A stretch of 57,032 nucleotides of DNA, the filler included, from Platydemus manokwari (lineage: Eukaryota): the NCBI GenBank assembly GCA_037951405.1. It is 5 parts of 5 records of this genome, joined end to end, with 100 filler letters (N's around TTAATTAATTAA, not from the genome) between each part and the next. Parts side by side here need not be neighbours in the genome. Positions count along the whole stretch, not along the records: positions 33,380 to 44,319 come from JBBMOY011035523.1; 4 more parts are not named here. One strand, 5' to 3'. The notes under the pieces are model-generated. The model had not been told where the DNA came from, did no database searches, and saw nothing but the letters and a program-made list of their open reading frames with translations. Both the position numbers and the translations under genes were made by a program. Below, in pieces: positions 8,016 through 56,069 of the stretch (position 1 is the stretch's first letter; every line of letters begins with the position of its first letter).

Positions 8016-8770
8016 TTATTTCACTTTCCTATTTTTGCTATCTTTTCTCGATACTATATTTCGAATTTTTTTCATCGTTCTTTTAACAGTGATCTTGCAT
8101 TTTTTCTCCAGTAAATCAAACGACATAACACACAGTGACAAACCGAATAAAACATAAACAGAGCACATTATCGATTTATATTGCAGCTTTTCACCGCCTG
8201 TTTCTATAGGAACCAAATCTCCAAAACCAATGGTGCTCAGCGTAACGAAAGAAAAGTACAACGAATCAATAAATGACCATTCCTCATAAATTAAGAAAAA
8301 TATCGATCCGATCAGATTATAAAACATGAAAACAATTATCACCAATGATACGGGAACTTCAATCGATTTCGATTCCTTAGCAGCTTCTAATAATTTATTG
8401 GGATTCGGTATTCTGAGAAGAAATTTCCGAAATCGTATGATATGACTAACAGTGTTAGTTTCGGAATAAACTTTCGATTTGTTCATGACAGTCACGGAAA
8501 AATCTTTATCATTAATCCCACTATTATCATTATCGATTGTGTCATTAGCATCGGTTGGTTTTGTATCCATTGACGAGTTTTTTAATTTTTGAGCTTTTTT
8601 GTGTTTCTTCATGGCTTTTAAGCACGACAAACGATAAAACAATCGAAAAATGTTAGCCATTAGAGATCCTATCTGAGTGAGATAAATGAACGTAAGAGGT
8701 ATACCAAAAAATGCATAAATAATCGTTCCGATTCGTCCAGTGATTGTTTTTGGAGTTATATGTCCATATC
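8016..8770 (-). CDS. Two-pore-domain (K2P/TWK, KCNK-like) potassium channel, large terminal exon; upstream exons not found
   Basis: Acceptor ttttacag| followed by GYGHITPKTITGRIGTIIYAFFGIPL (P1 end + M2), then M3, WSFIDSLYFSFVTLSTIGFGD (P2), M4, and a stop at 8016. Confidence 0.92.
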
Positions 8771-11700
8771 CTGTAAAACAAACAATTATAAAATAAGGTA
8801 TATCTGAGAGACAGTATCGTCTTCTCCACTTTTATATTCATTTTATGCTGTGATAAAGCACATCTATCTTAATTGCTGAGATAATCTGGTCATGGAGAAA
8901 ACCATGTATAAATCGATTATAGGATATAAAATAAATATTATCATCCATTTTCTTTTTAGATCAGAAAAACAAATTTCGCCACGGTGATGAGTTTTATTAT
9001 TGCTACAAAACTATATCCTGTTTTTTAGATCTTAGCCTGGTAATGATGAAATACGGGATGGTTGCAGAACGATAAGATTGAACTAAAGTAAAGCACGCAG
9101 TGAACATATTCATGCCTATGAAAACCGACTATGACTCACAAAAATTGAACTATAAAAACCAGAATTTCTGACTTTGATTTTCAAAAGAGAAATTTTTATG
9201 TTTTGAAATAAATCTTTGCATCTTAATATTGATTCGAAATTATGTTCCGTATCAAAAATAAGTTCAACTTAATATTTTATATTATAACTTGATAGATTAT
9301 TGTTTTGTTTGCCGAAATGAATAATATATTCTCCAAATTTTAATATCTACTATGACTTTTTTTCATAGATTTCGACTTAAAAGCTTATCATAACATTTCA
9401 AGAAATGAATCTATTCAGAAATCACCGGTGTATTTTGTAATTCACATTAAAATCTAAGACCATAAATAACAGAACTGGCGAAGTGTGGCTCACTCAACCA
9501 GAGGGTAAGATTCACGATACGGGTGAACCGTACAATGAATAAAAGCTATTAAAAATGGTAGGAGCAAAATGAAGAGAGTTTTATTTAATATCGAATCTTT
9601 CGACACGATATGAAGATAAAGATCAATGCTGATATACCTAATCTGTTGCTAAATCGGCTGTACGATTTCCAATTATGATAGATAGGATTGATTGATGGAT
9701 CGAAGTATTGATTACTAAAAGAATCAATTCGATATTGAAATCACTGTTTATTAGAACCATATTGAATCAAGTTCGAAAAATAATCATAGAAACAAAACAA
9801 AATATATTCAAACAAAATATAGCGCACAAAAACTTAAATATGTAATATTTTAATCCATAAAATGTCATCACATTGTATCTAAATATCCCATTAATTTTCT
9901 AAGTACAAACTGAGGTTTATTTTAATTGGTGTGCTTTATTTTACTTCTCGATTTGAATTCTTAAAATATAAATTTATAATAAAATACAGAGCTTCCACCT
10001 TTATAATGAATTTATAACATTTCGCCTTTAAGATAAATTCCAATAATCGGAATTTTTGTGTAATGGCTTTCAGAATGATTGATTTAGTGAAACACTATGC
10101 TTTATACAGAATTTTCGTTACAAAATCAAATTTTTTATATGCTAAAAAGCATCGAAATCTCAAAAAAATAATTAAAAAATAAGCAAAAACTTATTCTTCA
10201 GTTAACAATGAGAAGTTGTGTTCTTCATTCTTTTGTCACCACAGAAGGCAGTTATAGTATCTCATCTGACGTTGTTTCTGATCTTATGATATTTGCCTTT
10301 AATGTATATCTTGAGCTTTTTTGTATAAACAGAGTTTTTAATCCATAGTATTTTAAGGATTTTAAGAGAGGTTGAATTATGTAAGGACAAGTTCATAAAA
10401 ATACAATTCCGTCAATAATTGCAACCAATGTAATCAATTTATTCGAATAAATGATGTCTATAAACATTAAGTATCTAATTACACCAAAACAGCCTATTAA
10501 CTATGTGATTTGTTGATGATTCTTTTTTTCTTTCCTACTTTTATAGAACATTGCAGTAGGTATCTTGACTTGACTTATGATACAACATTCATATTCTTGA
10601 ATATCATTTAAGGGGTTTATGATAAAATGTTTATTGATCATCACAAGCACTACTCAGCATTATATCGGCTTTAGTTGACAATATATCATGCTTACTGCGG
10701 AATTTATAACCACATGTTTGTGTGTTGTCTGTGTGCACTTTGTATTTGATGCTTTGGTTTTCAAGGTTTCAACAGAAGCTATGGATTTATGTCAACTGAG
10801 ATAAGTAATTATAAAACGATGTAATTTTATTCAAATTATTTTATAAATTTTTGAAAGTTAAAGGTACTAAATATTGTTGGATGAATAATTTGAAAGATAA
10901 AAACATTTTAGTCAAGGTCGTTATTATTTCCATAAAGCCAAAATGTAAGTATTAGAAATTTTATTTATTTCAGATATTTTATTTTATGGTTTCAAATCTG
11001 TCTTTTTTTAGGCAATTATTGGATTTATTATTTTAATACTGTCTTGTTTCAGTTATTTATTTTAATAAAATTAATTCGGTTAGAAAAAAAGAACAATTTA
11101 ACTAATATCTGGTAGATAATTTTTAAATAATGTTGTAAATAATAATTCTTCCTTGTTTCAAATAATTGAAAGAATACTCATCACTTCGCTGAAATGACAT
11201 GCTTTAGATGAACTTCTTTTGAAGTATTGTAAACAGCGTAAGAAATTTAATTTTAATAATTGTTCTTCTCATTTGTAAATATCAGAATTTAAATAATTTG
11301 TGTAAATAATAAACTCAGAATTATGTGATAAGGAAAATTTTAATTAGGAGAATTTTTTCCATTATTAATAGACAAGGTCATATTAAGAATTTGTCTAAAA
11401 TTTATAACTCAATTGAAAGGATTGGTAATAAGGATAGAAAAAGTTATACAATGATTTGATTTTACCACAAATTCAGATAGATAAGAATGAGAATGAATCT
11501 ATTTGGTCAATTTGAGGTTCTATATAATTTCTAGTGAGAGGTAAAAACTTCTAAATAAGACTAGCACTAGTCTTTCGAGAATTGTTAAAATGAAGTTTTT
11601 GGATGTTTATGTTTGCTATGGTAGTGGTTCCTGGGTATCAAGAAATCTAAAAATATGAAGAGGTAATGTTGTTAAATTTCCTACTAACTACAAATTCAGT

Positions 11701-13249: not shown

Positions 13250-13566
13250 ATAGTAAAAAGATAACTCGTTTGCATCAAAATTGTAATCTATTTCAAAATA
13301 ACACCGTTTGTTTTATAATATTTAAACAAATCTCATTTTTTTATCTAACTTCACTCTCCCGTTGTTTTCGAAATCCTTTCTAGCCATTCAATTCTTCGAG
13401 GTTTTGGCTGTCCCTGGAAATCAAGAAGAACTTGATGTGGACTTAAAAATTTCAAAGTTTTGTGTGGACCTTCATAACGATCTACGTTTTTCTTTATCTT
13501 ATGTGGTTCTTTCTTCACTAAAACTTCTTCTCCAACTGTGAAAATTCTACAACCTCTTTTCTCAGC
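13250..13566 (-). mobile_element. 3' end of a short-LTR Ty3/Gypsy element: integrase GPY/F tail, polypurine tract and ~100-bp 3' LTR
   Basis: Minus frame FTVGEEVLVKKEPHKIKKNVDRYEGPHKTLKFLSPHQVLL, then gggagag directly followed by TG. The following ~100 nt resemble 36308-36411, and the peptide matches 38200-38290. Confidence 0.75.
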
Positions 13567-14900: not shown

Positions 14901-15888
14901 TGTGACTATGGCTTTCTTCTAATTGTCATTTACCATCTAACATAGGTCTGACTATTTGGTTGCTATGATCAGATATGGTTATGTAGGCATGTAAATGTTT
15001 GAAGGCCGTAAATATATGCTTAAAAATGTAAATACGTTTTTTTGTAGACCTCGATTTCACTCAACAATTTATGTAACACAACGTCTCTACCAATATCAGA
15101 AGAGCCTGCAAGGATTTTCAGAGAAATAGATGACCTCGTTGACTAAACATTGGAAGAAATTCAAGAGGAGACAGAATTAAAAGAAACTCAAGAGGAATTC
15201 CTCGAGTCACAGGAAGAAGTCCACTATGAGGAATTAATCCCACCTGTCAGAAGATGATCAGAATTTACCGAGCATGGACGCAAAAGTCAATCAGCTAACC
15301 AAGAAAGAGTAGAAGAATCCAGACCAAGTCATCTAGCACTAGGGAGACCAAGAAAGGATCAAATGTCAAGGCATACATTAAGTACCACTATAAGTACAAA
15401 GATTAAAGCGAGAGCTTTAGAGAAATTTGTACGAAATTTGATATAACCAAAAGGAATAACGCATGTGAAATCTACACAGGCAGAGGATATGTTAGGGAAA
15501 GTGCTGAAATTGCTACATTCAAAATTTAAAAATCTATTGGATAATGAGCTATTATGAAAACTAAGGACTGGATTTGTCGGAGTAGAATTACAAATTCAAC
15601 ATATCATTTTAGACAAAACATAGGATGACAAAGAGATCATCAAAAGCACTCCTCAAAGCATAATCGGATGCTAGAAAGCTCAAATGGCTATAGCTTTCAT
15701 GATACGAATGATATATGGAGTAACTACGAAGCATACACCGAAATATCAAGAAACTCTAGGAAAACTGGCCACGTTGTTGGAAAAGATTATCGAGTCATGG
15801 ATAAACAGACATATCGGATGGGAAGGACTGATAAAAGGGAAGAGTAAACCTAAATCATCTAAGAGAAGACAAAGCACCAAACATAGAA

Positions 15889-16831
15889 TTGGGAGCACAG
15901 ATGCCTATGGTATTGTTAACTATAATCATAGTAATGAGTTTATTTAATATAAAAGAAACCACGGCTATAAGAACAGTTGATTGCGATAAACCTGAGCTCG
16001 AAAAGATGTATTCGCTAGTGAATTTAAAGGAATGTCCTGAGGCTAAATACAACAAAATTTATATAGAATGTATATCAATAAACCGACTACAGAAGGCTAA
16101 ATTAAAAAAAGGTGTAATAAATACACAAATCCTCATTGAAGAAGGAGAAATTGACGATGATGTTCTATGTACTGAACGAGAAAGATATTTTTGCCAGAAT
16201 AAAAGGAGAAGTCCTATATAGTTACAAATGCAATGGGATAATGATTTCATTGAAAACACAGTTAGAATCTACCAATGAACTATCTGTATTTAACAACATA
16301 GAAAATAGATATTTGGAGCTAATATCTCGGATACTGATAGTTGAAAATGTAAAAGTAATAACGATGCTTTGCAATAGTATGTTAGGGCCACTGTATAAAT
16401 GTAATGGAACATGTTACAAGATGCTAAGCAAAGAGCCAATAGATAAGGTAGTTAACTTAGAAAAGATAAGGTTGTAACATGAATTAGATTTCAAAACGTT
16501 AAATGATATCGCGAAAATGGGAATTTATACCGTGGAAGATATAGAAGAAGCAAGAAGAAACCTAATGCTTCCATTAAGGCAAGAAAGAGTGGTCAGATAA
16601 ATAGTAGATTTAATGTTGCAAGGAGGCGGAGAGCAGCCAAACATCGAGAACCTGCTAGCTCCAGACCACTTTAACAGAGTGTCAATGACTTTCCTTCATA
16701 GGACATGGGGAAGATTTGTAGTCATTGGAAATGTTGTATCTGCGTTTAAAGGAATTTGGTTTATAAAAGTTATAATAAAAATGGTGTTGAATCCGTGTAT
16801 TTCAACATACGTACTAATAAGAGTACATTGA
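15889..16831 (+). pseudogene. Chuvirus-like (class III fusion-type) envelope glycoprotein, internally deleted and frameshifted
   Basis: Hydrophobic signal, then RTVDC...YSLVNLKECP; later GEVLYSYKC, NELSV....RYLELISRIL, C....PLYKCNGTCY, IAKMGIYTVED...LMLP, and a TM region TWGRFVVIGNVVSAFKGIWFI. This motif order matches chuviral/retroelement-captured glycoproteins as I recall them. Confidence 0.75.
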
Positions 16832-17237
16832 TAAATTTATGTTACTGGAGAAGCAACACACGGCAATTAGAAAGTTAAAAGAAAGAGTAAATATATTAGA
16901 ACAACCAGAAACTGCTATATACTGAGATACTAATAGAGATTCAAAGGAAAAAGAAGATGAAGTTTTATTGAAAAATCAAGTCAGAATATTTAGCAAAACA
17001 GTATGGAACTCAGTCTAAATAGAACCAGATCAGGATCATTAGGACGATTAAGCTGTGTAAGTAAAACGTTCGGATGTTATCCAAAACAATGAAATGGAAA
17101 ATTTTAATGAAAAGTAGTCGATTACTAAACCATCAAAAATAAATTCAAAAATCAACTTATCCGAGAGTTAGGTAAGAGCAGAGTTCTCAATACCGGATAA
17201 CAGAATAAATATGGTATATGAACCAAATCACAGTAAA

Positions 17238-17455
17238 TTTTCTATTAAAGTAAAAGTTAATGACTACATGATGTAAGCATTAATAGTTTCAGAAGCAGAT
17301 GTGTTAATCATCTCTTATAAAATTTTAACTAGGAAGCATTAAAGCCACTTACGGTACTAGTTTTGTCTAGAACAGTTACAGGAGAGTAAATCTCATTTGA
17401 AGGAAAAATCTTATGCAAAGCGCTAATTGGTGAATATAGGTTCACTCATGAATTT
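17238..17455 (+). pseudogene. Retropepsin-type aspartic protease remnant
   Basis: FSIKVKVNDYMM*ALIVSEADVLIIS (decayed ALIDSGADVSII), followed after a frameshift by RTVTGE*ISFEGKILCKALIGEYRFTHEF. Confidence 0.7.
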
Positions 17456-17469
17456 TCTTTCTTTTAGTT

Positions 17470-18960
17470 TCTCTTTTACGTCATTGCTCATCCAAGTTCT
17501 CTTCATTCTCAGAATCTGCAAATTCGACGGCTGAGATGCTATCTTTCTAATCCGATTCGGTGCTCTGCTTTGAGTAGAAAGTGTCTTTCCTTGATGCACA
17601 TATATATTATCTTTTCAGTTGTAACTCATTTGAAACCTGGTTTGCGTAGTAAGATTTCATTTGGAGATTTCCATTTCCCCAGATTTCCAATCACATAGGT
17701 ATGTGATTCCAACGTTGGCTTTCTTCACCTGGTTCCGCAGATCTTCGTATTTTTGTAAGTTGCCTTCATCCACGTTGTTCAACTAAATAGACACAGCTCG
17801 TCCTATTAATAAGTAATTGCCACTAAATTGGCAAGATTTTTATATGTATGTCATTTTCAGTGAAGTTATTGATGTATTTGGTCAAAATTTTCAATATTCG
17901 CATATGACGGTTGAGGATATATAAATGTGACATATTAAAATTAGTGTAAACATGGGTCTGGGATTTCAGCTCATACAAGCATTTTTGGAACTGTTGAACT
18001 ACCATGAACTTCATGTTTTGAGTGACAAGTGTGTCAAGCCAAGCTCGGTGTACAAAGGTAAACTCTGCTATTGAAAGTTGTACACAATCTTTTTTCATGT
18101 TGAAGTTATTTCCGGCCATATTTTTGGATATCTGTCACATCGAATTTGCTTGGCCAAGTGAAGTTGATAACTTCTGTTGAAGCATTGTCGGAGTAGATTT
18201 AGGAGTTTTTTCAGGTTATTTTAGCTCAGTGATGCTTCTTTTGTTATACCTCCTTCATCTCTGCAAATGCATTGGTAGATTTCGACACCAGTGTCTCCAT
18301 CGTTGATTTAGAATTTGACTGTGGTGAGCATTTAGACTTGTTCATATCAGATAAACCCAGAAATTTTATCCCGTTGCAAGTGCTTCTTTTTTCTGGTCTT
18401 TGGGTGGCATTTTAGCCAGTTTAATGATTTCACAAAGTTTTGATCACATCCTTGGGACTCCTTTGCAATTTCCTTGATAATTTTCTGTTTACTACTTTAT
18501 ATTACTAGCACATTTGATACTGTTACTATCCATAGCCAGCGTTTGATTTTATCTAGTATAAGAAGTACGTCGAGCAAAAGTTTGGTGCACCGATCATCTT
18601 TTTCAATATTTTCCTCAATTTTGTGTCCAAACTTTTCAGCTTGGTATATGTAACATAGTAAGTTCTGTCGAAAAAGATCACTTTGCTATGAACAAACATA
18701 CCACATTCATGAAGTATTTGCCATCGCAATAGACTACATTCAGTGAGTTTTTCTGATAAGGGTTTTAATTCTCGAGATTCTCGATTGAGTTATACAGATT
18801 TCAGCAAAGTTAACACTTAAATTTCTAAAATATTCTTTTCATTGAATTATCGGTATTTTCTAGCCATTGATTTGAAGGCTTTTGACTGATTGTTCCAATT
18901 TCATTTTCCACATGTGGCCGCACTTGTTTGGTTCGAATTTTATGGTCAATTAGTTCACAA
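17470..18960 (-). mobile_element. 3' part of an R2-group (NeSL/Utopia-like) non-LTR retrotransposon with restriction-like endonuclease, decayed
   Basis: Minus strand order: thumb IKFEPNKC; SLLRWQIL (cf. SLLxPWQKL); LKSLDTKLRKILKKMIGAP; AEFTFVHRAWLDTL (cf. RFIHRARLN.LP); decayed CCHC knuckle QKC..E.QTHV....NRH; RLE motifs QKYEDL and VIGNLGKW...NEILLRKPG. Confidence 0.75.
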
Positions 18961-18999
18961 TTGGCAGAGACTGGTTCATTAACATTTGAAATTCTTCGC

Positions 19000-20350
19000 T
19001 AATATTATGAATAATTGCTATAACATCGACATAAGCCGGTGATTTGATTGATTAAGAAAGATTCTAAGTTGAAAACGATGTTCAGTACTAAAACTAGGCA
19101 TTTCTGTTTTAAGAGACTACTTTTACATAATGTAACGCGCCCTTTTCAGAGGCTAATGAATGTAATTCTCAAGGTTTTGTTTTACAAAGGTCCTCTTGTT
19201 TATCTGGATGTTATTTTAGTGTATAGAAGAACAGTCGAAGAACACAATGGGAAACACGACAAGGTATTTATGTTGATTATATCAACAGGTTTGAAAATCA
19301 ATCTTAAAAATTTTCTTTTGAATCAAAAAATTATTTTATTCATAGGGTTAGTGTTGAAGGTAAATAAAACTAATAAAGACAAAGTAAAGAAGATTAAAAA
19401 ACAATAAAACACAGTTGTGTAACCCAGTTGATGTCGTTTCTTTGACTATGTAATTATTATCACTGGCGATTTAGCAAAGACTACGCATAAAATTATGTTC
19501 CATTAGTTGGAATGATGACCAATAATGACAAGTAATTATAATGGACTACGGAGTGTGAGGATTGATTTGTAAACTTAAAGGAACAAATATGCACAGCTCA
19601 GATTTTGGCCTTTCCGGATACAATTTAAAAGATGATTATAAATAACGTCACTAATTTCAAAGCAATTAGCCAATTAGATGGCACTAGAACAGAGAGAGTT
19701 GTTGTCTATAGTTCAAGAATTCTTAACAGTTATGAAAAGTTATTGCGTCAAGAGGAAGAAACTTTTAGCAACCATTGAGTTCATTATGTATTTAAATTTT
19801 TGACACCCACTGATAAGAAGGCATTAACATATATGAAGAAAACTAATAAACCAATTAGCTCTAAGTTTCAAACAAGGATTGCGAACTTAACTGGTTTAAA
19901 TATCAGAAGTTATCAGATCATGGAAATGCGGATGGATTCTCAAGGATAGGCGAAGCAGTTTTCACAGTGCTTATTTCAGCATAAAAGTGCTAAAGTAGGC
20001 AAACCATAAAATTGGTTTATTAATGTTTCAATTAGAGCATTCAATTAAAATTAATGACGAACTGAAGAAGATTCAACAAAAAGATACTGTCGTTTGTTCT
20101 ATTTGAAAATAGTTACAGAAAACGGAAACATAGGTCAATTCGTCGGTCAAGAACAGCAAATGTTTTAACGGTTTAGAGAAATACGATAATGATAATAGAA
20201 AGAAGCGAATTGTTATGCCAGAAGTTCATAAGAAGTTGTACCATATTGGTATTAAGAATATGGTCGATTACATTGAAGAGATTTACTTCTGACCAAACAT
20301 GTCACGAAACATTGATACAAAGTTTGAAATTGTGATATTTATCCTGAACT
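19000..20350 (+). mobile_element. Ty3/Gypsy pol fragment (RT-RNase H-integrase zinc finger) of the short-LTR family, decayed
   Basis: KTMFSTKTRHFCFKR...FQRLMNVILK...LVYLDVILVY...GLKINLK (RT); TDKKALTYMKK and DHGNADGFSR (RNase H end). Nucleotide similarity to 37270-37830. Confidence 0.85.
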
Positions 20351-21059: not shown

Positions 21060-21680
21060 GGATCGGAATCAAAATATATTCAATAATCATCCAAGTTTTC
21101 CTTCATTTTTTAGAATGATAATTGTTGGAAGCTCAGGTTGTGGTGTAATTTACTTAATTTAATTAATTACTTAGATTAAATTAATTTAATAATGTTTACA
21201 AAAATTGTTTATTAAGAAGAATATCAAATTCATTATCGTCGATCTACAATTTTTTTATGAAAATAATGTATAAAAAATAATTGAAAATTAAGATGATTTC
21301 GATAACGATATAACTGTAAGAGAAATCAATGGGCTCATTGTTATATATAACTTTTTTTAGAGAAAAGTAAGATATAAATAACTATGCTATCTAAATTTAA
21401 CGAAATTATGAACCCGTTGGATTTACATAGAAATAAATAGAATTTAATAATTTTGGACGATTTTTACAAAGAAAAACAAAGAAATAATATCTGCTTATTA
21501 TATTAGAGGAAAATATTATAGTTGTAATAGTATTTTACTATCTGAAAGTTAGTTTAATTTACCCAATTCAAATTTTGTTCTTTTATGTTAATTAATAACA
21601 AAGATAACGATTCTGATTTATTATCCAACGCTACAGGAAAAAGGGATTTTGATTTTCTTGGAAATAAACAATGAAATTGG
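21060..21680 (+). mobile_element. Polinton/Maverick-type packaging ATPase (A32-like) remnant
   Basis: NHPSFPSFFRMIIVGSSGCG (Walker A, decayed), NLIILDDF (Walker B, ~21440), and YYIRGKYYSCNSILLSES*FNLP (cf. YTRGRH.N..CI.LSQ.YF.LP). Confidence 0.75.
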
Positions 21681-33450: not shown

Positions 33451-33823
33451 TAATTACAGGCATTTAAATAATATCCTGAGAGAATATAAATAATCTATCA
33501 ATTATATTATTAAGATATTTTCATAATATTATATTTTATAATTGATTTTACATTGTAAAATTCTCGAAATATAAAACAACAACAAACTTTCATTTTATTG
33601 AAACATTAATCTTATAATTAAATGATTAGAAGTTAATAAACACGGAAGTAATAATAATATTATAAATTGTCATTTTATATATTTCATTTACAATATCATA
33701 AGTGAACTACTCTTCCCAATATTGTTTAATATTTATCAAACACAAACACCTTGAATAAATATTGTTATCAAAGTTAAGTTAACAATAAAAAGCAGCTTTG
33801 TAGTTAATTTTATCGACAAATAA

Positions 33824-35133
33824 TTATTCTGTATATTCTGGATAGTCGTCCAAATACTCCAATGTTTTTTCGTGACGTATCGATTCATCCACAGTAATAT
33901 CATTTAAAGGACATCCATTTTTATAAAATTGTTTAAATTGGGCTTTAAATCTATCTGTTAAACATTAAACTAATAATTGATTAATAATGAAAATATAAGA
34001 ACCAGAATGCTGTTTCAAAGGACCTCCTCGTCCACCATATTCGATTGGTAAGAGATCTTTCAATCCAGGAATATTTTCGAATGCTACATTCATATCATCA
34101 TTTCGAATAATCTGAAATTAATAACTCATTTAGTAATAAAAACCAATCAGTAATTAAATCAATGATGATAGTAAACAATCGATAAAATATAATATATTTA
34201 ACTAAAATTATAATTATCTGTGTACGCACTTTGCCATCAAATTGTTTATTCAGATGAAAACAGTACATTTTGAACGCATCATCATAAATGGCAGATGCAT
34301 TGTAAAATAAATGAACTTTCATTCGCCAAGGAAAAATATCCGAAAATTGATATTATTAAATTACTTAACCAAATAATCATTGAGAAAGTTACTTGAAAGC
34401 ACCTTGCCACTTCTATCAAATATTTACTACCAGTCCATATATCCGCTATTTTGGCGAGGCATCTGTCATATCATAGAATAATCTTACTCCATGGATTTCA
34501 GTCTCTTCTTCAGAAAGTATAACGTCATATCCCATGTAATACAAAGCAGTAACTTGAATATTGGTAAACCTATCAGGATTCCAGAATTCTAAAAAAAGTG
34601 AAAAGCTTTGAACTTGTTGCAATGAACAAAATGAGAACTCTTTCACCATCATAATCTATATTATTACAATTATATATTATCATAATGAAACATTATTACT
34701 TAATGGGGAGAAAATAATTAATTCTCCATCTTTATTTCTTCCCAATAGTGTAAACAGTCTACATATTTCACGATTTTTATAAGTATTTGAATAATTATTA
34801 GTCTACTGTAAGTCTAGAAATTCATTAATCATCGCGTCATCAATTTTGGCATAATGGAAATAATGTGCAGTTCCTCTATGGGAACCTCTCACTGTACATA
34901 AAGAATCCAATTGTTTTTTAGCTGTTTTCAAATCGAATTTCGCTACTCTTAGAAATCGTAGTAAGAATTTAGAATCTATTCAAATCAATTATAATGTAAT
35001 GATGAATATTATTTTATTATCATACCTGTCGGACAATTTGCTCGTGAATTTTGTCTGGATCTCCATTCAAATTATCAATAGCAAATTGTTTCGATGATTT
35101 GCTAATTTTATCATAATCATATTTATCAGTCAT
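33824..35133 (-). pseudogene. CRAL-TRIO (alpha-TTP/clavesin/RLBP1-like) gene, disabled tandem duplicate
   Basis: Exon-by-exon paralog of 40349-41723. It has a 43-nt deletion in exon 1 (~35038), a 1-nt deletion near 34445 giving DASPK*, and an AG>CG acceptor change at ~34341. Confidence 0.8.
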
Positions 35134-35597
35134 TATCACTGTGTCGGTTTTATAAAATCAGAAACTTATTCTCAAAATAAATCAATCTAATGTTTTATAA
35201 AAATAAAATAACACACACAAGTATTGAAAGTTAAAAGCTGAAATAGATTTAGCGGTACTGTCATTGATGAGTGATTCTTCTTTACGGTGTTAAACCAATG
35301 TAATTAACAAGTGGTCAAATTTTACAATTTCATGAAAATGTGTAAATCAATATTATCGACATTTTTAAGTGAAAACATTTTTGTAAAATCCAACACTTGA
35401 TGGAAGCAGATTTTTGCAAACAACTCTTCATTTCCATTAATATTTGATAAATATATTTTAGTATTCAGAGTGAACCTATATTAATTATTGATAATAATTA
35501 GGAATATATGCCAGTACTTTAATGTTATGCTGAATAAAACACATATTTTAAAAATCTAGCAAATTAGAAAACTGATAAAACTAGAATATAACAGATC

Positions 35598-36307: not shown

Positions 36308-38300
36308 TGTAATATAGTTACATAAAGACTAAATTTGTTTAAATATTCGAAAAGAACGCGTGTGATTTTTAAAACAATACATTTCAATGGAAACCAGTGA
36401 TATATTTTTATTGGCGACTACGACGAAATAAAAGTTCTTACGAGAGCCAAACGAGAAATGAAGCAGAATCTGTTACACAAAAACCAGGAATTTTTTATTC
36501 CAAAGCCATTGTAATTTTATGCATCAATTCAAGACGCTGAAAAGTGGTTCCAGACAACCATGGGTTTCGCCACTATCATCTGCATTTGACATGCTATTGA
36601 GAGATGTCGCCAAACAACTATGGCAAGAATTCATCAGATTCAAAGAAGCTGTTTCAAATGAAGAAATTGAGAAATGGTTTTTGAAAATTTTTTCACATAC
36701 CAAAACTGTATACTACAAGGTTCAAGATTTGGCGGCAATGCAACAAAGACCGGATGAAAAATACCGCAGTTTTGAACTTCAGCTAAAGAAGCTGGCTTCG
36801 GAGGTGTTTAACAAGAAAAAAATTCTTCCAAAAAATTTCAAGACTATTTATTCTGCACGGCCTAAATAGCAAGAAATTGAAAAAGTCTTTTACTCTCGAC
36901 TCTGCAATGACCGATGATATGAGAAAATAGTCGGCTGTCAATTTTAAGAGTTTACTCCGACGAAGCCCATAAACGTCATCAAGAAGACATATGCTCAGCC
37001 ATTATTTTAAAGTAACCAAAGGAAAACCTTTCAAAAGGAAAATTCGTTCAAAAAACCAAACCCAATTCTGCTGGGAAGAGATTGCTGTAAAGGAATATCA
37101 TCGTGCTCCAGCTAATTACATTGAATCTTTAAACAATACTAGACCAACAACATAAATGAAGGCTATTGAGCCTAGGTTTTAACACCGATTGTAGAAGAAA
37201 AACCACACCACGTGGTGATTATTTTAAGCATGGAGCTTACTTTTACTGTGATGAGCTCTGACGCCGGAAGTTTTGTACCTCGAACTAATCACAAAGCATT
37301 GACAAACATGAGAAAACTGACAAACCAATTAGCTTCAGATTTCAAAAATGGTTTTTTAAACTTATATGGATTCAATTTTGAACATCAATATCGAAAGAAA
37401 ACAGATCATGGAAATACAGATGAACTTTCAAGAATAATCGAAGCATTGTGTTCACTCAACATCAAGGTCCTAAAAAGGCAAGCCAAAAGGTTTGTTTATT
37501 AATGTTGTCAAGAATTGAATTGCAAATAATTAGTAACTAAGCATGATTCAACAAGAAGATACTTTCATTAGTTCCATTCGAAAGTGGTTACAAAAAACGA
37601 AAGCAGAAGTCAATTCCTCGATAAGAAAAATTTAATATTTTAACAGTTTAGAGAAATATGAATTGTTTGAAGATACTGTAATGTATACTGAGAATGGAAC
37701 GAAGCAAATTGCTGTACCAGAGGTTCATTCGCAGAACCTAACGAGATACCTTTATGAAGAGTTGTGTCGATTACATTAAAAAGATTTACTTCTGCCCGAA
37801 GTACGAAATTGTCATGTTTGTGATAAAATGAATGGAGGTGAAAGAATTAGAATAAAGTTTTAGAATAAAGCAAGAATTTACCTCTCCATACCAACACCGG
37901 ACAAATGGCTTAGCCGTAAGGATGATTAGGACAATCCGAGACATGAAGGGAAGAGAACTGGTACCATAAAAACAGGATTGGAATAAATACATCGGATGGA
38001 ATTTATTGTCAATGCAACACATCAAAGCTCAATTCGATATTTCTCTTGTTTGGATGACGATTTAATTTGCATGGGTTACGATTAAATGAACCAAGTCACC
38101 ACCACTAGATCATCAAAGAAACTAAAAACCTTCTAAAACCACTAGTCACAAACTTAAGAAAATTTGATGATAAAAATGTTGTTGTAGAATTATTGTTGTT
38201 GGAGAAGACGTTTTAGTGAAGAAAGAATCACACAAAATAAAAAACAACGGATATCTTTATGAAGGTTTTCACAGAATTTTGAAATTTTTAATAATAGATA
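36308..38300 (+). mobile_element. Short-LTR Ty3/Gypsy element, internally deleted: 5' LTR, PBS, gag, RNase H end, integrase
   Basis: TGT...LTR 36308-36411, PBS at 36412, gag-like LAAMQQRPDEKYRSFELQLKKLASEVF, RTNHKALT...DHGNTDELSR, integrase TSPYQHRTNGLAVRMIRTIRDM, and GEDVLVKKE...YEGFHRILKF. Confidence 0.85.
36412..36425 (+). promoter_or_regulatory. Retroelement primer-binding site (TGGCGACTACGACG), possibly tRNA-Ser-type
   Basis: TGG (complement of tRNA CCA) immediately after the inferred LTR and just before gag; resembles the TGGCGACGAG tRNA-Ser(GCU) PBS. Confidence 0.6.
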
Positions 38301-38329
38301 ATAAATAAAATAAAGAATCTTTATGAAAG

Positions 38330-40140
38330 ACTAATTGGAATAATAGCTTCAATATATATTTTCAGAGAACTAGTAGAGATCAGTAAGACTCTACTGCAAG
38401 AATTCAGTATATTTGTAGCACGATTTGGATTAAGTCTCATGACATCCGAAGAGAACTTATACATATAATGATAAATATTGTAGGATATCTTAATGATATA
38501 AGTAAAGCTCATTATTTCACAAAAGCAGCAAAAATAGGAAGAAAAGATAAAGTGACTTGGTGGATGAATATATAAAAATGTTGACATATGAAGGTCAAGA
38601 ATTAGATGACGACATATATCCGATTGACATATGATGCAGTCATATGAAGTAAGCAAGATTACTGTATTTTATCTGGATAGTTAAGGACAAATGATGCCAA
38701 CCACCTGACTCACTGCACCACTAAAATAATTTACCAAAACTTCAACAAAGAGAGGTACAACGTAGCCTACTTAGTAATGGAACACCTTTACCAATAGCAG
38801 AAGAACCTACAAAAGTAACAAGAGAAATAGAAAACCCAAATCATGTTATATTGAAAGATATCCAGAAGGATAGGGAATCAGAAAAAATCCAGATCCAAGA
38901 AGATACCTAACTAAAAGAAACTCAAGTGGAAATCTTCGAGTCACAAACGGAAGTCGATTATGAACAATTGGTTCCATCTACCAAGAAAATATAAGAAAAT
39001 AAGCAGAAGTTACATAGCTAGAAAGTAGAATTGAACCAGCTGTCCAAGCGAAGGTTGAACCGATACTTCTTATGGGAAGGACTGATTAAAGAAAAGAGTA
39101 AACCAAAATAATGCAAGACAAGAGAAACACCAAATATAGAATTTGGCCCAAAAATGGCCTTGATATTGTTAATAGGAAACATTGTAATGAGTTTATTTAA
39201 TAAAACAAGAACCACGGCCATAGAAGCTTTTGATTGGGATAAATTGCAGCTTGGGAAAATATATTTATTATCGAATTTAGAAGAATGTCCAGAAGCTCAA
39301 TCAATGAAAATAAATATAGCAAATTATATATACCACGTGTATAAAGAAAGAGGTGGCAGAAGGGTAAGACAATGAAGATTGAAAAGAGCTAAGTTCGAAT
39401 ACTAATTAGGATCTAAATTAGGAACTAACAGGAGCATCTGCTACCTTTCAAAGAAGGACGACCATTGTTTTAATGGAAATATTTCATGCCATGGTATATA
39501 GACGATACAATTATTTTCTCAGGAATTTAGTAGAAAACATAGTGAATGTCTTAAAAGATCAAGATGTGCAGGCTTTAAAAATAAAACCAAACAAATGCGA
39601 TTGAGCTAGACCATAAGTGATATACGTAGGACATGCTATCTTTACATGTGGAATTAAATCCAACCCAAATAATGTGAAAAAGGTACAAAAGCTTCTAATA
39701 TCAAAATCTATTAAAGGGATCAGAGAGTTTTTATGACTAGTCGGATATTACCGACGATTTATTAAAAATTTCAGAAGGATAGAAGCCCCAATATATGATC
39801 TGCTACAATGAGTAAAATAAAAAACAAAAAGTGTTTAAAAGAAGAAATTAAATAAAATGATATCCGATAAAGAAATAGGAAAGGTTTAAATAATGCAAAC
39901 GTTCAAATGGGAACAGAAGCAGCAACAAGCGCTTGAAATGCTAAGAGTGTTTAACAACAGTTATAATGGCCAGAATGTGCAAACCATTTTACTCATTACC
40001 GATACTAGTCGGGTTGCAATAGGAACAGTACTAGAACAACAGAGGAACGGAGGAAAACATGTTATAGCATATGCCAGCATAGAGTCAAAAATGCATGAAA
40101 AGAAGCGATGTCGAAAATGCCGTAGCCGTTAAATAGGTTA
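38330..40140 (+). mobile_element. Decayed envelope-bearing Ty3/Gypsy element, copy 2: unknown domain - glycoprotein N-terminus - (deletion) - RT - RNase H
   Basis: LPIAEEP..REI..LKETQVEIFESQTEVDYEQLVP and WEGLIKEKSKPK match copy 1. Signal + IEAFDW...YLLSNLEECPEA at 39154-39410. Then LTGASATFQR..AMVY/IDDTIIFS, LKIKPNKC, LVGYYRRFIKNF..IEAPIYDLL, and ITDTSRVAIGTVLEQ...VIAYAS. Confidence 0.85.
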
Positions 40141-40348
40141 AAAAGAAAAGACAGCTAGAAAATGAAAAATAAAAAAATTAGTAATAATAATATTATTAAT
40201 AATTTTATAAAAACATAATATGTTAAGTCAATTACTGGTCCCAATAATCGTTTATATTTAAATATCACAATCACCCAGAATAAATATTGTTATCAATGTT
40301 AAGTTAATAATGGAAATCAGCTTTTTAGTTAATTTTATCGACAAATAA

Positions 40349-41723
40349 TTATTCGGTATATTCTGGATAATCTTCTAAATAATCCAATGTTTCTTCATGA
40401 CGAATCGATTCATCCACAGTAATATCCTTCAGAAGACTTCCGTCTTTAAAATGGGCTTTGAATTCTTCTTTAAATCTTTCTGTAAATTACTGAGTAAATC
40501 ACTGATTGAAAATGTAGATATAAATAACCAGAATGATGTTTCAAAGGACTTCCACGTCCACCATATTCGATAGGTAAGAGATCTTTCAATCCAGGAATAT
40601 TTTTGAATGCTACGTCCATATCATTAGTTCGAATAATCTGAAATTCATAATTCATAAAGTAATAATAAACCAATCACCAATCAAAACCATGATAATAGTA
40701 AAATATTAATAAAATATTATATCTAGCTAATTTTAAAAATCTGTTCAACAAAATATAAACTATTTACGCACTTTGCCATCAAATTGTTTCTTCAAATGAA
40801 AACTCCACATTTTGAACGCATCATCAAAAATTGCAGGCACATTGTAAAATACATGAACTTTCATTCGCCAAGGGAAAATATCCTAAAATTGATTTCATTA
40901 AATATCTAAATCAAAAATCATTCAGAACGTTACTTGATGGCACCTTGCTACTTCCATTAAATATTTATTGTCAGTCCATGCTTTCGCTACTTTCGGCGAG
41001 GCATCTGTCATATCATAGAATAATCTTACTCCATGGATTTGAGTCTCTTCTTCAGACTGAATAACTTCAAATCCCATAAAGTACAACGCAGTAACTTGAA
41101 TTTTAGAAATCGTATCAGGATTCCAGTATTCTAAAGAGGAAATGTGAAAAAAATTGAACTGGTTGCGATAAACAAAATAGGAACTCTTTCACCATCACAA
41201 TTCATATCATTACAATTATATATTATCATCATAAAACATTATTACTTAATGGGGAAAAAATAATTAATTCTCCGTCGCTATTTCTTCCCAATGGTGTAAA
41301 CAGTCTAAATATTTCACGATTTTTATAAGTATTTGAATTACTATGAAGTCTACTGTAAGTTCAGAAATTCATTAATCATCGCGTCATCGATTTTGGCATA
41401 ATCGAAAAAATGAGGACTTCCCCTATGAGAACTTCTCACTGTACAAAAAGAATCCAAGTGTTTTTGAGCTGCTTTCAAATCAAATTTCGCTGTTCTTAGA
41501 AATCGAAGTAAGAATTTAGAATCTATTCAAATCAATTATAATATAATGATGAATATTATTTTATTATCATACCTGTCGGACAATTGAAATGTGGCATTGC
41601 TATCGCCCATTTTCTCAGTTGGTCAATTTGTTCGTGGATTTTGTCTGGATCTTCATTCAAATCATTAATAGCAAATTGTTTCGATGATTTGCTAATTTTA
41701 TCATAATCATATTTATCAGTCAT
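40349..41723 (-). CDS. CRAL-TRIO domain lipid-binding protein (alpha-TTP/clavesin/RLBP1-like), ~7 exons, apparently intact
   Basis: LNEDPDKIHEQIDQLRKW...DSKFLLRFLRTAKFD (CRAL-TRIO N), EETQIHGVRLFYDMT, YFPWRMKVHVFY, DLLPIEYGG. GT-AG introns preserve the frame. Confidence 0.9.
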
Positions 41724-42877
41724 TATCACTGTGTCGGTTTTAAAAATTCAGAAATTTATTCTCAAAATCGAATCAATCTAATATTTTATAAACAAAAAAT
41801 AACACACAGTATTGAAAGTCATTAGCTGAAATACATTTTAACGGCCCTGTGATTGCTGAGTGGTTAATGTTTAGGGCGCTAAGCCAGTGTAATTAACAAG
41901 TGGTCAAATTTTACATTTTTATGTAAATGTACAAATCAATAATATCGATATTCTTAAGTGAAAACATTTTTGTAAAATCCAGCACTTTAAAGAATCACAT
42001 ATTTGGAAAAAACTGTTCACTCCAATTAAATAATATTTGATAAATATAAACTTCATTTATCAGAAAATATATTTTATCATTGGTCAGCAATATTTTATTT
42101 ATTTTCTACACGTTATAAAAATTGATAATCTTTTTTAGATTACACATTTTTAAATTGATTCTTCAGTAAATATTTATCAGTGAAACCAACAATTCAAATG
42201 TTTCATTTTTAGTCTCACTCAAAATAGTGTTCAAAAAAGTGTAAATGCAGAATTGAAAAAATTGAAATTATAAAATAACAGTTCTTAAAAATTTAATAAA
42301 ATCGTCAACACATAAGTCTCGAAAATTGTAAATTCAAATAAATCACAAAAAACAAAAGTTCCAAAAGTAAAATATCAGAAAACAAGAGCTCAAAACTCGA
42401 ACGATTAAAACAACGACAAAAATCAATAACTTTTAATTGCCGCTGAGAATCGACTTCTTTTATAAACTTATCTTTTGTGATGATTTGTTATCATACAGTT
42501 TTCATTTCATTTATTATAACCCCCTGAAGACCAGCCTTCTATCTTTATATAACATTATCGTATCTCGATGTTCATTGACTGTGGTTAATGTGCGCCATAT
42601 TCTCATATATGTTGCCCTAGTAATTGATTTTGATTTTCCGATTGTTGTCAGTACAGTAGTTTTATATTAGGTGGTTACTGATCATTATTGAGTGAATGAG
42701 AGTGCTAATGTATTTTGTGAAATACATAAGACTAGAAAGTATATAAGGGAGCTTAGATCATGAGAATAATTTTAATTATTTCCTAGAATCTAGATCTGTA
42801 GTTTGATGAGTAGATGATTTATGATTTTGATTTGTTTTTAAACAGAGCTGAAGAAGTTAAGTATTTTATATTTTGAG

Positions 42878-50665: not shown

Positions 50666-51784
50666 TTAGAATTGACGTGTAAATTATGTTGATCAAAATA
50701 ACAGTAGTAGTAATACAAAGTAAAACAAACAGCATAAATCAATTTTGTAATATTTTCTATAATTATGATCGATGAAAATTTATAGTATATGTGTATTTAT
50801 TGTAATTATACAAGAATGGATTGTTAAACTTATTAAATTAATTTTAAATAAAAATTTTATATTTCCTATTAAATATTATATAAGTAACTTAATTTTGAAA
50901 ACTTAATTTTGAAAAATTAATTTTAAAAAGTAAAAATTTTGCAGTAAATAAAATAATTTATATAAATGAAAATCAATAAATGTATATATTACGTATTTTG
51001 ATTATAATAAAAATAGCTTTTGATTGTTCATTTTGACTTAATTTATTTGCTTATTCAACTCAAATGCGTAATTCAGAAGTTTATAAATGAAAATTAATGA
51101 AGAAATATAAATATTAACTTTATCCACCAGAGTTACAACTACGGCAATGAAAATGTATAACTCACAAGAATGATTGTCTTTTCATGTGGATTTATATGAT
51201 TAATTACTTTGCTATTTATTTGTTGATCATTAAAAATATTTTAAACCTTTAAAAAACTTCAAACTTCAAAATTTGAAAACAAGACTTTTTTCAGATGCAC
51301 ATACGAAAATTTAAAATCACGGAAATCTAATTTAAATCATCAATAATAGCTATAACGATATAATAAATAATAGATATAAGTTATAACGATATAATAAATC
51401 CATAAATATTATATTAACTCAAGCAACATAATTTAAAGAAATTATTATTATCAAGATCGGAATCAATCATCTATTACATCCATGTCTTATGCTTATAGAA
51501 TTAGCAATTTAAATCGGAGATTAATTAATATCTCGGTTTATAATTCTATCAAAAGATTTAATGGAATTTAATAAGGAAATTGTATTGATTTTCTACAATT
51601 TATCGTGAACATAATATGATAAAGTAACTTCACCAAAACAAATACACCCAATCATACACAAACACACACACACATTCACTGTCTCACTGTATTCGTCCCT
51701 GTATTCATCCATCCTGCATAATATTAATAACAATTTATTGATTTTACCAGCAACTAAATGAGAAAATTTAAATAATGTTTTCAC

Positions 51785-54700
51785 CTTTGTGATTTGAGCC
51801 GAATGACCAAGATATTCCTGCCACTCACCGGGTTTAGTAAGTGGAAACTTGAATGATCGAACTGACCCATTATTGGTTCCACAGAATAACATTCGACCAG
51901 AATTAGACAATGTTACTGTCGTCAATTGCACATCAGGACTATCGACTTCTCTGAGAACTTGGGAGTCGGATATTTCCTTCAACGTTTTATCAGTTCCGAC
52001 AGCATAGGTGCTTTTACCATCTTGAGTGACACTGATTCCCGTGTAGCTGCATGCTTTGAGCACACTCTCACCGCATCTCTTGCCTGGAATAATTTATGTA
52101 TTAATCCACGTCATGGATAAACCGAATATACCTGTATTTGTGTCCCATTCGTAAACGGCCCCATCCATTCCACAAGATATGAGTTTCTTATCATCAGTTG
52201 TCCATACGACATTTCGAATTTTCCCATTATGACCCTTCAAACTCATGACAACCTCGAAACTCGTCGTTGAATAAATCTGGATTAGATTGCTGTGCACTGC
52301 TGCGAAATAGTGACCACCGTAGCTGAACGCGCACTGAAATGAAAAATCAATAAATGGGTTTTTTTATCGATCATGTTATCAAACCTCTTTACAACCGCGA
52401 ATTGAGAACTCCTTAAAAGTGCGAATATCATCAATCAAGATGTTCATCAAACGGAGTTTATCACTGAATCCCACGAGAATGTAAAGACCCGATGGGTGCA
52501 AAGCGATGCTGTAAGCTTCTTCAGCAAATTCTTTATATAACTCCAATTGGCTGAAAAGTAATTTTTTATTACGATAAATTCTTCATTCACTCACTTAGTC
52601 TCATAGTTCCAAATACGAACCGATCTATCCACAGCACAAGTCGCAATAATTGGTTTCCTTCTACAGAGATCAAGCCCAAGTATTTGAGAATAATGAAACG
52701 AATAAGATAACAGATCGAAATTCGAATGATCGCCAATTTTAGCTAATTCTGGAGAGGAAATTGTGAAGGAAAAAAGTTGATGGATATCAGTACACGCTAC
52801 AATCGTTTCTTCAGACGGACTGATGCACATATCTGTAATTATTTGTGCTTGCGATTTAGCTGGATCAGCACTGTTGGAGTCGATGGGAATGTGTATCTCT
52901 CGAATTTTACGATAATATTCCTTTTCATCAGTCTTCTCAAACCAATGAACTTTACCAAGTCCACAGGCCGCAGCAAAACCTTTATTACTCGAGACAATCG
53001 TGGTAATTTGCGTGTTGAGAGTGGTATTGTGACTACCTTCAGGTCTGAATGAAATATTTCAGTAGGTAATATTATTGGATTGGATATCACTACAAAAATA
53101 ATATTCTTCAGCATAGACTCACTTTGGTTGATCTTCAAAAGTAAGAGTAGCACCAAGGTTGTGCTCGACTTTGATCTCTCCATTTTCTACGAGAATCCAT
53201 TTGCCGGTATCTGTTCCAAGAATGATTCGTTCATCCGATACCCAAGTGTGACACAAGAAATTCTGTGATTCCACTTTTAATATGCCGAAATTTTTTAAAT
53301 TGTTTTCCGAATAGCGAAACATTTTGAAAAAGTTGTTGCCAATTGCACAGATTTGCGTGCTATCTTGTGGATTGAATGAAATCTAGATGATCATGACGAT
53401 TAAAAATAATTCAGGTACTAATTAGCTGTACTTTAACATATGTACTTTTGTTGTACTTTTGAATATATCAAGTTAAAGAATTTTCAATACAATAAGTTGT
53501 CATTTATTCTTCTCATAAACCATGGTAATTTTTAGTAAACAAAATTATTTCGATCGGAGGAATTGGTATATTGTAAATAATATTATAAAATCATGAATAG
53601 CAATATGAAAAACATTGGAATAAATTTATTAATCGAGTAAAAAATTAAAGACAGAAAGATTTCACTAACATCTATGTTTTGTCGAGCGAAATAATTTATA
53701 CATTAGAATCATCTTAACACGATTTCTGAGCCAGAGTGGCTATCAAACTGAACCAATGCGCGCGTGCACACACACACACACATATATATCTTTTTTTTAA
53801 TACATCCATTACATTTTATGTGATCTCTCTATTAGTTTTTTTCATCTCAATTTGTCGTGTTGGGATTTTACACTGCTACATTTTTGTAAAGATATTTTAA
53901 AATATTATTGTTTTAACTATTATTTATCATTACTTGATTATTAAGAACAAATTGTCGTCATATCAACAAAGAAACAATTAATGGACAATGATAAAAACCA
54001 AATATTATACAGAGAGATATTTCCAAATAGTTTATCAGCATTAGCAAACATCACTAATATTCCAATTATATCAATCAATGTTAGCTAGAACTGAATATTA
54101 TTAAGAGAAAAATGATCCTTGTTAGTGATATCAAGGAAAATTTTATAAACTAACATAGAACATAAAAGTATTATATTTAATGATTACAGAAAATATATTC
54201 AATACCGCACTATTGTTTACAATCATAATAATATCATACAACTATAATTGAGAGTTACTAGAAATTGTCGTTTGGAATACTAACAAATTATACACCTAAT
54301 GAACGTGCAATCATCATTGATTAATATAGTAAAAATATCATTCACGATACTATAAAAATCATTCACAATACCGCAAATATTTTTCATAGTACCATGTATA
54401 TCATTAATAATACCAAAAATATAATTAACAATGCCAAAAAGTTATTCAAAATAATATAAATATCATTCCCAATACTATAAATATCATTAACAATACCATA
54501 AATATCATTCATAATAATATAAATATCAAGCAAAATACCATAAATAAAGATCATTCATAAGACTATAAATATAATTTACAATCCCATGAATATCATTAGC
54601 ACAACCACAGATATCATTCAAAATACTTTAAATATCATTCGCAATACCACAAATTTTATTCACAATGATATAAATATCATTCGCAATAATATAAATATCA

Positions 54701-56069
54701 TCATAATACTATAAATATAATTTACACTGTCATGAATATCATTCACAATACCACAGATATCATTCATAATAATATAAATATCATTAACAATACCAAAAAT
54801 ATCATTCACAATAATATAAATATCATTCACAATGCCATGGATATTGTGAGGTTTATTCAAAAATACCAGAAATAATTAAAATTTACGTATGATCAAAATT
54901 AGTAAAAATTGAGTCAAAAGATATTTTAAAAAATTATGTTAAAAATAAATCAACGATATTAATATTTATAAAAGGATCTTGCTAAACAATACTGTTAAAC
55001 TCTCAGTATTAAAATTATTAAAATAAAATTTTAATTTTTGTTAAAAAAAGATATGATATAAAAATGTGTTAATTTTATATTTTGATCAAAAATCAAGATA
55101 AATCTGATGGAACAAATTTTAAAATTTGTTTAAAATGTGATGTCATAAATCATATATTTGTTCTGTTATAAAAAACATGACTACTGATTTAAATTTCGAG
55201 AATGAAGAAATTTTGGCAACAAACAAATATCTTTGACAACTGCGCATTTATCAATCATGATATATTAAATGAGCAATTATGATTCATCACTTGATCGATA
55301 ACTAATACGAGAACAATATTGAATGAAATCAATAAATTATTATATATTAAAATTATCGAGAATTTTGGAAATATTTAAATTCTATTCTATGAATATTTAT
55401 ATCGTAGATCTTATTTGTTATCATTTAATATCGACGATCTAGTTAACGATAAACCATTGGTTCAGATATTCGATATCAAGCGCGGAAATGATAAATCAAT
55501 ATAAAATGTTCAACAGGTTGTCATTTCATTTTTAATCAAAGATTATTTCAGAAATAACTATATAAATAATTGATTTTTTATTATTGCCTTACTTGGTTGA
55601 CAGAAAAAGTCGATGCTGGAGATGTTAATTTGGTCGATGCCAACTGTTTGCTCTTTTCCCAAGCCCAATAAATGAGAATCCAGTCCGGATTTGATGTTTG
55701 TCCAGCTAAATATTTGGAATCCGGTGAGAAAGCAATGCAACAAAACTCATTTGACTGAACTTCAGGTGCTGAAAGAGTTTTCTTTTTTCTCATGGAATTT
55801 AAATCATAAATGACAATCACGGGTTTATCTTCTGCTGTCGTTTCGGCAAGAGCAACATATCTTCGATTTGGACTAATTGCCATTGCTGTCATTTTACGAG
55901 ACTTCTCCAGACCCGAAATAAACTTTTGGGATCTTTGGTCAATATTATACATAACCAAATTGGAACCACAGGGATAAACCAATGTTTGTTCATTTTGATA
56001 TGCAATGGCCCCGTTTACACCAACTCTAAAGCCAAAAACGTGTTTCAAATGTGCAGCAGCTATAGACAT
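51785..56069 (-). CDS. CFAP57: Cilia- and flagella-associated protein 57 (WDR65), first six exons only (approx. 56069-55593, 53382-53123, 53044-52595, 52551-52385, 52333-52132, 52084-51785)
   Basis: [44 protein letters not shown]; ISFNPQD; [24 protein letters not shown]; [27 protein letters not shown]; LKGHNGKIR; [11 protein letters not shown]. The last exon ends in a GT donor. Confidence 0.93.
54330..54845. repeat. 21-bp minisatellite (atatcattcacaataccataa-like), about two dozen degenerate copies, in CFAP57 intron 1
   Basis: atatcatt recurs with ~21-nt period. Confidence 0.9.

Follow-up and report, generated by a model that had tools for sequence, protein, structure and literature searches.

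The stretch between positions 38770 and 40105 is best read as a dead copy of a Ty3/Gypsy element, internally deleted and truncated; its intact relatives encode a gB-type fusion glycoprotein (env) ahead of the protease (PR) and reverse transcriptase (RT), all in one frame. We put the probability of this reading at about 0.88. The analysis demonstrates which domains are present, in what order the relatives have them, and to which RTs the fragment is akin. As a protein-coding element the stretch is inert. The window, that is, the whole 57,032-nucleotide stretch of DNA that was analysed, consists of five AT-rich contigs with N spacers between them. Copy 1 of the env lies on the second contig and copy 2, to which 38770-40105 belongs, lies on the fourth. 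The parts of both copies are as follows.

15063..15270, plus strand: acidic upstream peptide of copy 1 (pairwise match to copy 2).
15609..15842, plus strand: Bcl-2-like domain of copy 1, with stops and with a BH2-like motif at its end (profile of three relatives, E 3.6e-6).
15870..16830, plus strand: signal peptide, glycoprotein start, gap, C-terminal ectodomain, and transmembrane helix of copy 1 (PF24664, E 0.013 and 8.5e-24).
17199..17440, plus strand: aspartic protease remnant of copy 1, downstream of env (tblastn of P0003 1807-1865, matching 17199-17417 at E 2.3e-4).
38770..39000, plus strand: acidic upstream peptide of copy 2, with stops (43% over 76 aa against copy 1 15063-15260, E 1e-14); its position is that of the region separating gag from the Bcl-2-like domain.
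39055..39105, plus strand: final helix of the copy 2 Bcl-2-like domain, its BH2-like end (12 of 17 aa, 71%, identical to the end of the copy 1 domain).
39127..39412, plus strand: hydrophobic signal peptide of copy 2, then ~65 residues from the start of its Monjiviricetes/gB-type fusion glycoprotein (profile and pairwise matches).
39350..39425, plus strand: interval of copy 2 holding the deletion junction, at which the rest of env, the protease(s), and the RT start are missing (bridged by one X1 contig).
39425..40105, plus strand: RT palm/thumb (Ty3/Gypsy type) of copy 2, followed by the first half of its RNase H (Pfam, ranking, and tree).

The env side of copy 2 is recognised by its resemblance to copy 1. 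A single frame runs from 38770 to 39414 with 6 stops in 215 codons, and the peptide, the BH2-like end, and the env start all lie in it. In this frame the acidic peptide comes first; a brief Trp-Glu-Gly-Leu motif and a signal-like hydrophobic segment follow, and last comes the glycoprotein start, which contains Cys. The matching region of copy 1 is 15063-16075. The glycoprotein starts of the two copies are 56% identical over 64 aa (E 7e-20), and their DNA matches at 74.9% over 259 bp and 77.9% over 77 bp. When an env-start profile built from nine relatives was compared with six frames of the window, it matched only at 15910-16062 (E 5.5e-13) and 39172-39387 (E 1.5e-11), the next-best match being at E 0.57. 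The env similarity of copy 2 thus reaches 39387 by profile, with a weaker pairwise extension to ~39412. An earlier note on this DNA had claimed that the upstream peptide and the glycoprotein start recur in diverged form on another contig, which the amino acid matches of 43%, 71%, and 56% bear out. By eye, the env start of Schmidtea errantivirus 1, as given in the supplement of PMC13524379, resembles P0001 and P0003 as well as window 39330-39412.

Judged by its sequence, the glycoprotein of both copies is a Monjiviricetes/gB-type fusogen (PF24664). Relatives were collected with phmmer, using the copy 1 glycoprotein as query against 1.84 billion representatives, and 99 matches were obtained; unlike the full phmmer search, a word-indexed search with the same query found none among 396 candidates. 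Domains were scanned in 16 of the 99 matches (the top 10 and 6 chosen). All 16 carry PF24664, and in 11 of them an aspartic protease follows it in the same ORF. RT-RNase H lies further on in three, two of which also have an integrase, and an RT upstream of the glycoprotein was found in none of the 16. The earlier claim that env stands before pol is upheld by this polyprotein order together with the RT affinity described below. The order PR-RT-RH-IN is present in P0002, P0005, and P0100; copy 2 lacks PR and IN. P0100, which clusters with P0004 and is 4,844 aa long, reads env-PRx7-ankyrin-RT-RH-IN. Gag sequences stand upstream of env in P0003 (a CCHC knuckle) and P0022 (Retrotrans_gag), and none was found upstream of env for copy 1 or copy 2 in the window. 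Several protease domains occur in P0002, P0005, and P0100 (seven stretches in the last), and P0002 and P0005 show, by eye, another signal-like, transmembrane-like region after the integrase. The record for P0005 carries the name of a bacterial MAG, probably through eukaryotic contamination.

The Bcl-2-like domain is seen mainly through the relatives and copy 1. The corresponding region of P0008 matches Pfam Bcl-2 at E 9.6e-4, which is under the curated cut-off, and Bcl-xL chains at E 0.01, while a Gly-Gly-Trp motif of BH2-like character lies ~30 residues ahead of the env signal in P0001 and P0018. A profile made from P0008, P0001, and P0018 finds Bcl-xL at E 1.3e-3 and, in the window, 15609-15842 at E 3.6e-6, with the next best at 0.93. 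The motif was not seen in several other env relatives, and an Atlas search with P0018 1195-1325 gave no usable match. An AlphaFold model of the Bcl-2 fold from the three-row alignment is of low confidence (pLDDT 53); its PDB matches listed are all of the Bcl-2 family, none of them significant (E at least 0.18). At the level of sequence, a Bcl-2-like domain appears to stand directly before env, as in the planarian Burro elements, with weak structural support. In P0018 (~990-1320), a stretch that looks ubiquitin-like by eye is followed by the Bcl-2-like domain and env, which is the order described for Burro in PMC6431247.

The RT side of copy 2 (39425-40105) spans 227 codons, 7 of them stops, with a frameshift around YIDD, which lies in a different frame from its flanks. 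The motifs named in the earlier note are all in place: ASATFQR at 39434-39454, YIDD at 39495-39506, the thumb motif LVGYYRRFIKNF at 39737-39772, and TDTS...VIAYAS of RNase H at 39998-40078. Pfam models RT_RNaseH (PF17917) and RT_RNaseH_2 (PF17919) match at E 4.4e-6 and E 2.4e-6, respectively, and the copy breaks off before RNase H is complete, the match covering profile positions 5-46 of 105. RVT_1 and RNase H models of the PF17917/PF17919 type occur in all 16 database matches of the RT fragment. In the Pfam scan, Peptidase_A17 (Pao-type) gave no match at E up to 1, and the Gypsy-type RNase H models matched instead. By these models, the database matches, and the tree below, the RT/RNase H of copy 2 is of Ty3/Gypsy rather than BEL/Pao type, as had been proposed. 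No gag, LTR, or integrase belonging to the element of copy 2 was detected in the window, and a self-comparison of the window gave no flanking repeat pair around the copies, both of which are truncated.

Whether this RT belongs with the env was examined by ranking and by phylogeny. The RT fragment's own database search covered proteins of 400-2,000 aa only, so the env-linked polyproteins fell outside it. The ranking set comprised 140 RT-bearing proteins, 5 env-linked and 135 background; a search with the P0005 RT brought no new env-linked RT among the 120 matches listed, and the multi-RT gene models common among these served as background. The fragment ranks the env-linked RTs 1-5 of 140, with domain scores of 79.9-93.8 bits against 79.5 for the best other protein, the fifth env-linked RT being only 0.4 bit above this outsider. 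With a control RT at 19048 as query, the env-linked RTs fall at ranks 32-115 of the same 140. Whole-sequence scores are 99-115 bits for the env-linked RTs and at most 80 for the 16 matches of the fragment's own search. A HAMVY stretch before IDD is common to copy 2 and four of the five env-linked RTs displayed; of the 42 background RTs scored, 11 also have the short FQR-to-YxDD spacing. HAMVY was not found in the survey supplement tables of PMC13524379, as represented by the first 400 characters of each cell and apart from the figure supplements.

A maximum-likelihood tree of 52 rows, built after a 75% identity cut had reduced the 140 segments to 51 and lacking a BEL/Pao or Copia outgroup, groups the RT fragment with 4 env-linked RTs (99/98). 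The end branch of the fragment is long (2.09), and its identity to the env-linked RTs is 33-36%. In a placement test with 30 hand-thinned references and 57 positions (the best 9 of 57 listed), the 7 best placements are inside or at the stem of the env-linked clade, with a summed RELL of ~0.95. The nearest positions outside the clade lie at delta lnL 8.2 and are not rejected (AU p ~0.10). As far as sequence comparison goes, the case for an env-linked affinity of this RT is good, though not absolute.

The junction between the two sides is best explained by an internal deletion. Clear RT similarity begins at 39425, and a weak competing extension reaches back to ~39368. In the relatives the env start and the RT are separated by ~1,000 (P0005), ~1,300 (P0002), and ~2,300 (P0100) residues; because of these distances, ~3-7 kb between the env start and mid-RT has probably been deleted from copy 2. 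The earlier note ascribed the arrangement to a single deletion of a G-PR-RT polyprotein. The internal deletion is retained and the single event is not, in view of the further lesions: copy 2 is without ~480 bp of the Bcl-2-like domain that copy 1 keeps (from the spacing of DNA matches 15235/38969 and 15818/39072), its RT connection has ~27 extra codons relative to the relatives, it ends within RNase H, and it carries in total 13 stops and a frameshift. The RT frame after the deletion also differs from the env-side frame. The same note took the family to be old and abundant. Great age fits the divergence and, together with the density of stops, is what we infer for the copies; an abundant env family does not follow from the summed contig depth, which is not a copy number.

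At the copy 2 locus, 38262-40293 is bridged by a single X1 contig of 2,032 bases with 0 mismatches, 0 gaps, and a depth of 12.9. X1 is the sole run containing this stretch, and it does so in contig form; no RNA run was listed with it, which has no bearing on expression. As X1 is possibly the window's own source, this contig does not count as independent support. An assembly chimera at 39350-39425 is nonetheless hardly credible: a mismatch-free contig crosses the junction at the depth of unique pieces, and the resulting order is that of the intact relatives, which weigh against the fact that the stretch is present in one run only, as contigs that are perhaps the window's source. The proposal that the env is instead the 3' gene of a canonical gag-pol-env element, namely the gag/RNase H/integrase remnant at 36333-38291, with the RT a separate piece, would account for an integrase-like sequence on the same strand, ~500 bp ahead of the peptide. 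It is largely refuted, and we consider it highly improbable. Summed contig depth is 5,000-32,000 over 36333-38291 and 38-193 over the env/RT part; contig joints fall at 36333 and 38291; the integrases of the env family rank just 16-53 of 91 for the remnant; and pol is upstream in no scanned env relative, the protease of copy 1 likewise being after env.

Two further alternatives concern how env and RT came together. By chance nesting, a fragment of an unrelated Gypsy element without env, the possibility on which the earlier note said its reading would fall, could have come to lie beside a truncated env. Many decayed elements lie on the contig, copy 1 also precedes an RT of a probably different family, and the AU test (p ~0.10) leaves an adjacent placement in play. 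Chance nesting is nevertheless very unlikely, because the RT fragment ranks (1-5 of 140) and groups (99/98) with env-linked RTs; it shares the HAMVY stretch with them, and env and RT are collinear on the same strand, with no LTR, gag, or protease seen between. Recombination or nesting of two related env-before-pol elements, by which env and RT would derive from different copies or subfamilies, is also improbable, if a little less so. Copy 1 offers no RT of its own for comparison and the junction is placed only to ~39350-39425, which leaves room for such a product, but one deletion accounts for the same data with fewer events, and the conclusion on domain order would stand either way.

Copy 1 is itself damaged. 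Its env lacks ~280 codons internally, and its protease remnant has no Pfam match. The RT-integrase that follows at 19048-20300 is, on sequence comparison, probably of a different family from the copy 1 env, so copy 2 is the sole link in the window between this env and its own RT. A remnant at 17450-19000 on the minus strand, gag/protease/RT-start-like by eye, adjoins the RT-RNase H-integrase at 19048-20300 on the plus strand; possibly both are one element with an internal inversion that broke up copy 1. The integrase region of the 19048-20300 element is 67% identical to 37284-37800.

The following working of the intact element is proposed, in part on the basis of what is generally known of polyprotein processing. 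From the anatomy of the relatives, the intact ancestor would have encoded one polyprotein, Gag-(extras)-Bcl-2-like-signal-Env-TM-PR-RT-RH-IN, the parts of which would be made in equal stoichiometry without a frameshift or splice. Led by the internal signal peptide, the Env ectodomain, a class III fusogen, would be threaded into the ER; past the transmembrane helix, protease, RT, RNase H, and integrase would be back in the cytosol. Signal peptidase would then cleave between Gag/Bcl-2 and Env, and Pol would be released by the protease of the element itself. Lying ~30 residues past the BH2-like motif, the signal segment might double as a Bcl-2 tail anchor, and the anchored Bcl-2-like domain may damp apoptosis in the producing cell. 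The intact element would likely have formed enveloped particles or spread from cell to cell.

Env-before-pol order has already been published (PMC6431247, PMC13524379), and copy 2 probably adds another dead member to a kind already described. Arkhipova and Yushenova (2019) described planarian Burro polyproteins with env between BCL2 and PR, matching mononegavirus fusion glycoproteins, as the first in-frame env between gag and pol (PMC6431247). Burro/GYPSM1 are giant Gypsy elements of dugesiid planarians, 25-30 kb long, with MATH/BIR/Smc/ankyrin/dUTPase extras, and decaying Burro fragments are recorded in Dugesia japonica (PMC6431247). BURRO1 is expressed on loss of SMEDWI-2 (PMC8532177). The family studied here shares with Burro a mononegavirus-like fusion glycoprotein immediately preceded by a Bcl-2-like domain (in copy 1) and followed in the relatives by an in-frame PR-RT-RH(-IN), as well as ankyrin repeats, these in relative P0100 only. 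It is unlike Burro in that giant size, LTRs, gag, and the MATH/BIR/Smc/dUTPase extras were not seen in the window, where contigs are ~10 kb and the copies truncated. Since the Bcl-2 and env-order features are found and the comparison with Burro is by description only, we file it as Burro-like.

Chary and Hayashi reported GAG-ENV-POL Gypsy elements with a gB-type env in Nematoda, Bryozoa, and Platyhelminthes, the flatworm ones being nine, six of them from Schmidtea (PMC13524379). Copy 2 resembles these HSV/gB-type errantiviruses in its Gypsy pol, gB-type env, and env before pol; that survey is of intact elements, whereas copy 2 is dead. The main text of PMC13524379 makes no mention of Burro, Bcl-2, or polyproteins, and the present locus ties the two separate descriptions together. 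Mosquito BEL/Pao elements carry a Chuviridae-like glycoprotein (PMC7642597, as summarised in PMC13524379), of the same class as that of copy 2; the RT/RNase H of copy 2 is of Ty3/Gypsy type by Pfam models, its database matches, and the tree without a BEL/Pao outgroup. The non-canonical nematode metaviruses of Sacco et al. 2022, as summarised in PMC13524379, have env before pol, the same flipped order by description.

The locus is an inert fossil, and the Bcl-2-bearing env-before-pol architecture is old and has long been decaying in this genome. We regard it as rather doubtful that the host is non-planarian and that the in-frame Bcl-2/env-before-pol polyprotein is the hallmark of a broader lineage of invertebrate reverse-transcribing viruses that are enveloped and block apoptosis, with flavivirus-like processing and the env signal peptide as Bcl-2 anchor. 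If such a lineage exists, the relatives with up to seven protease domains and an extra membrane-anchored domain after the integrase would be its undescribed diversity; a host outside planarians would give the architecture a wider range.

Several other pieces of the window were recognised. The sequence at 36333-38291 (plus strand) is what remains of a different Gypsy element with an internal deletion; it has a gag-like part, the end of RNase H, and an integrase, and its summed contig depth of 5,000-32,000 compares with ~13 for unique pieces. Some contigs link 38291 back to 36333, and the family is possibly one of very high copy number whose ends are tandem or LTR-bounded. Contig 1 has at its end an integrase C-terminal fragment, 13443-13553 (minus strand), that is 83% identical to 38181-38291. 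A CRAL-TRIO gene segment is duplicated on the contig of copy 2 (33647-35455 and 40180-42048, 82.6% identity over 1.9 kb), and its second copy begins where the RNase H of copy 2 stops. Host gene pieces on the minus strand, at 3034-3612, 8016-8831, and 51593-56069, are nicastrin-like, a two-pore potassium channel, and WDR62/MABP1-like WD40, a set in keeping with an animal and not specific to one phylum. A peptide at 21060-21150 (plus strand) is Walker-A-like and may resemble Polinton packaging ATPases.
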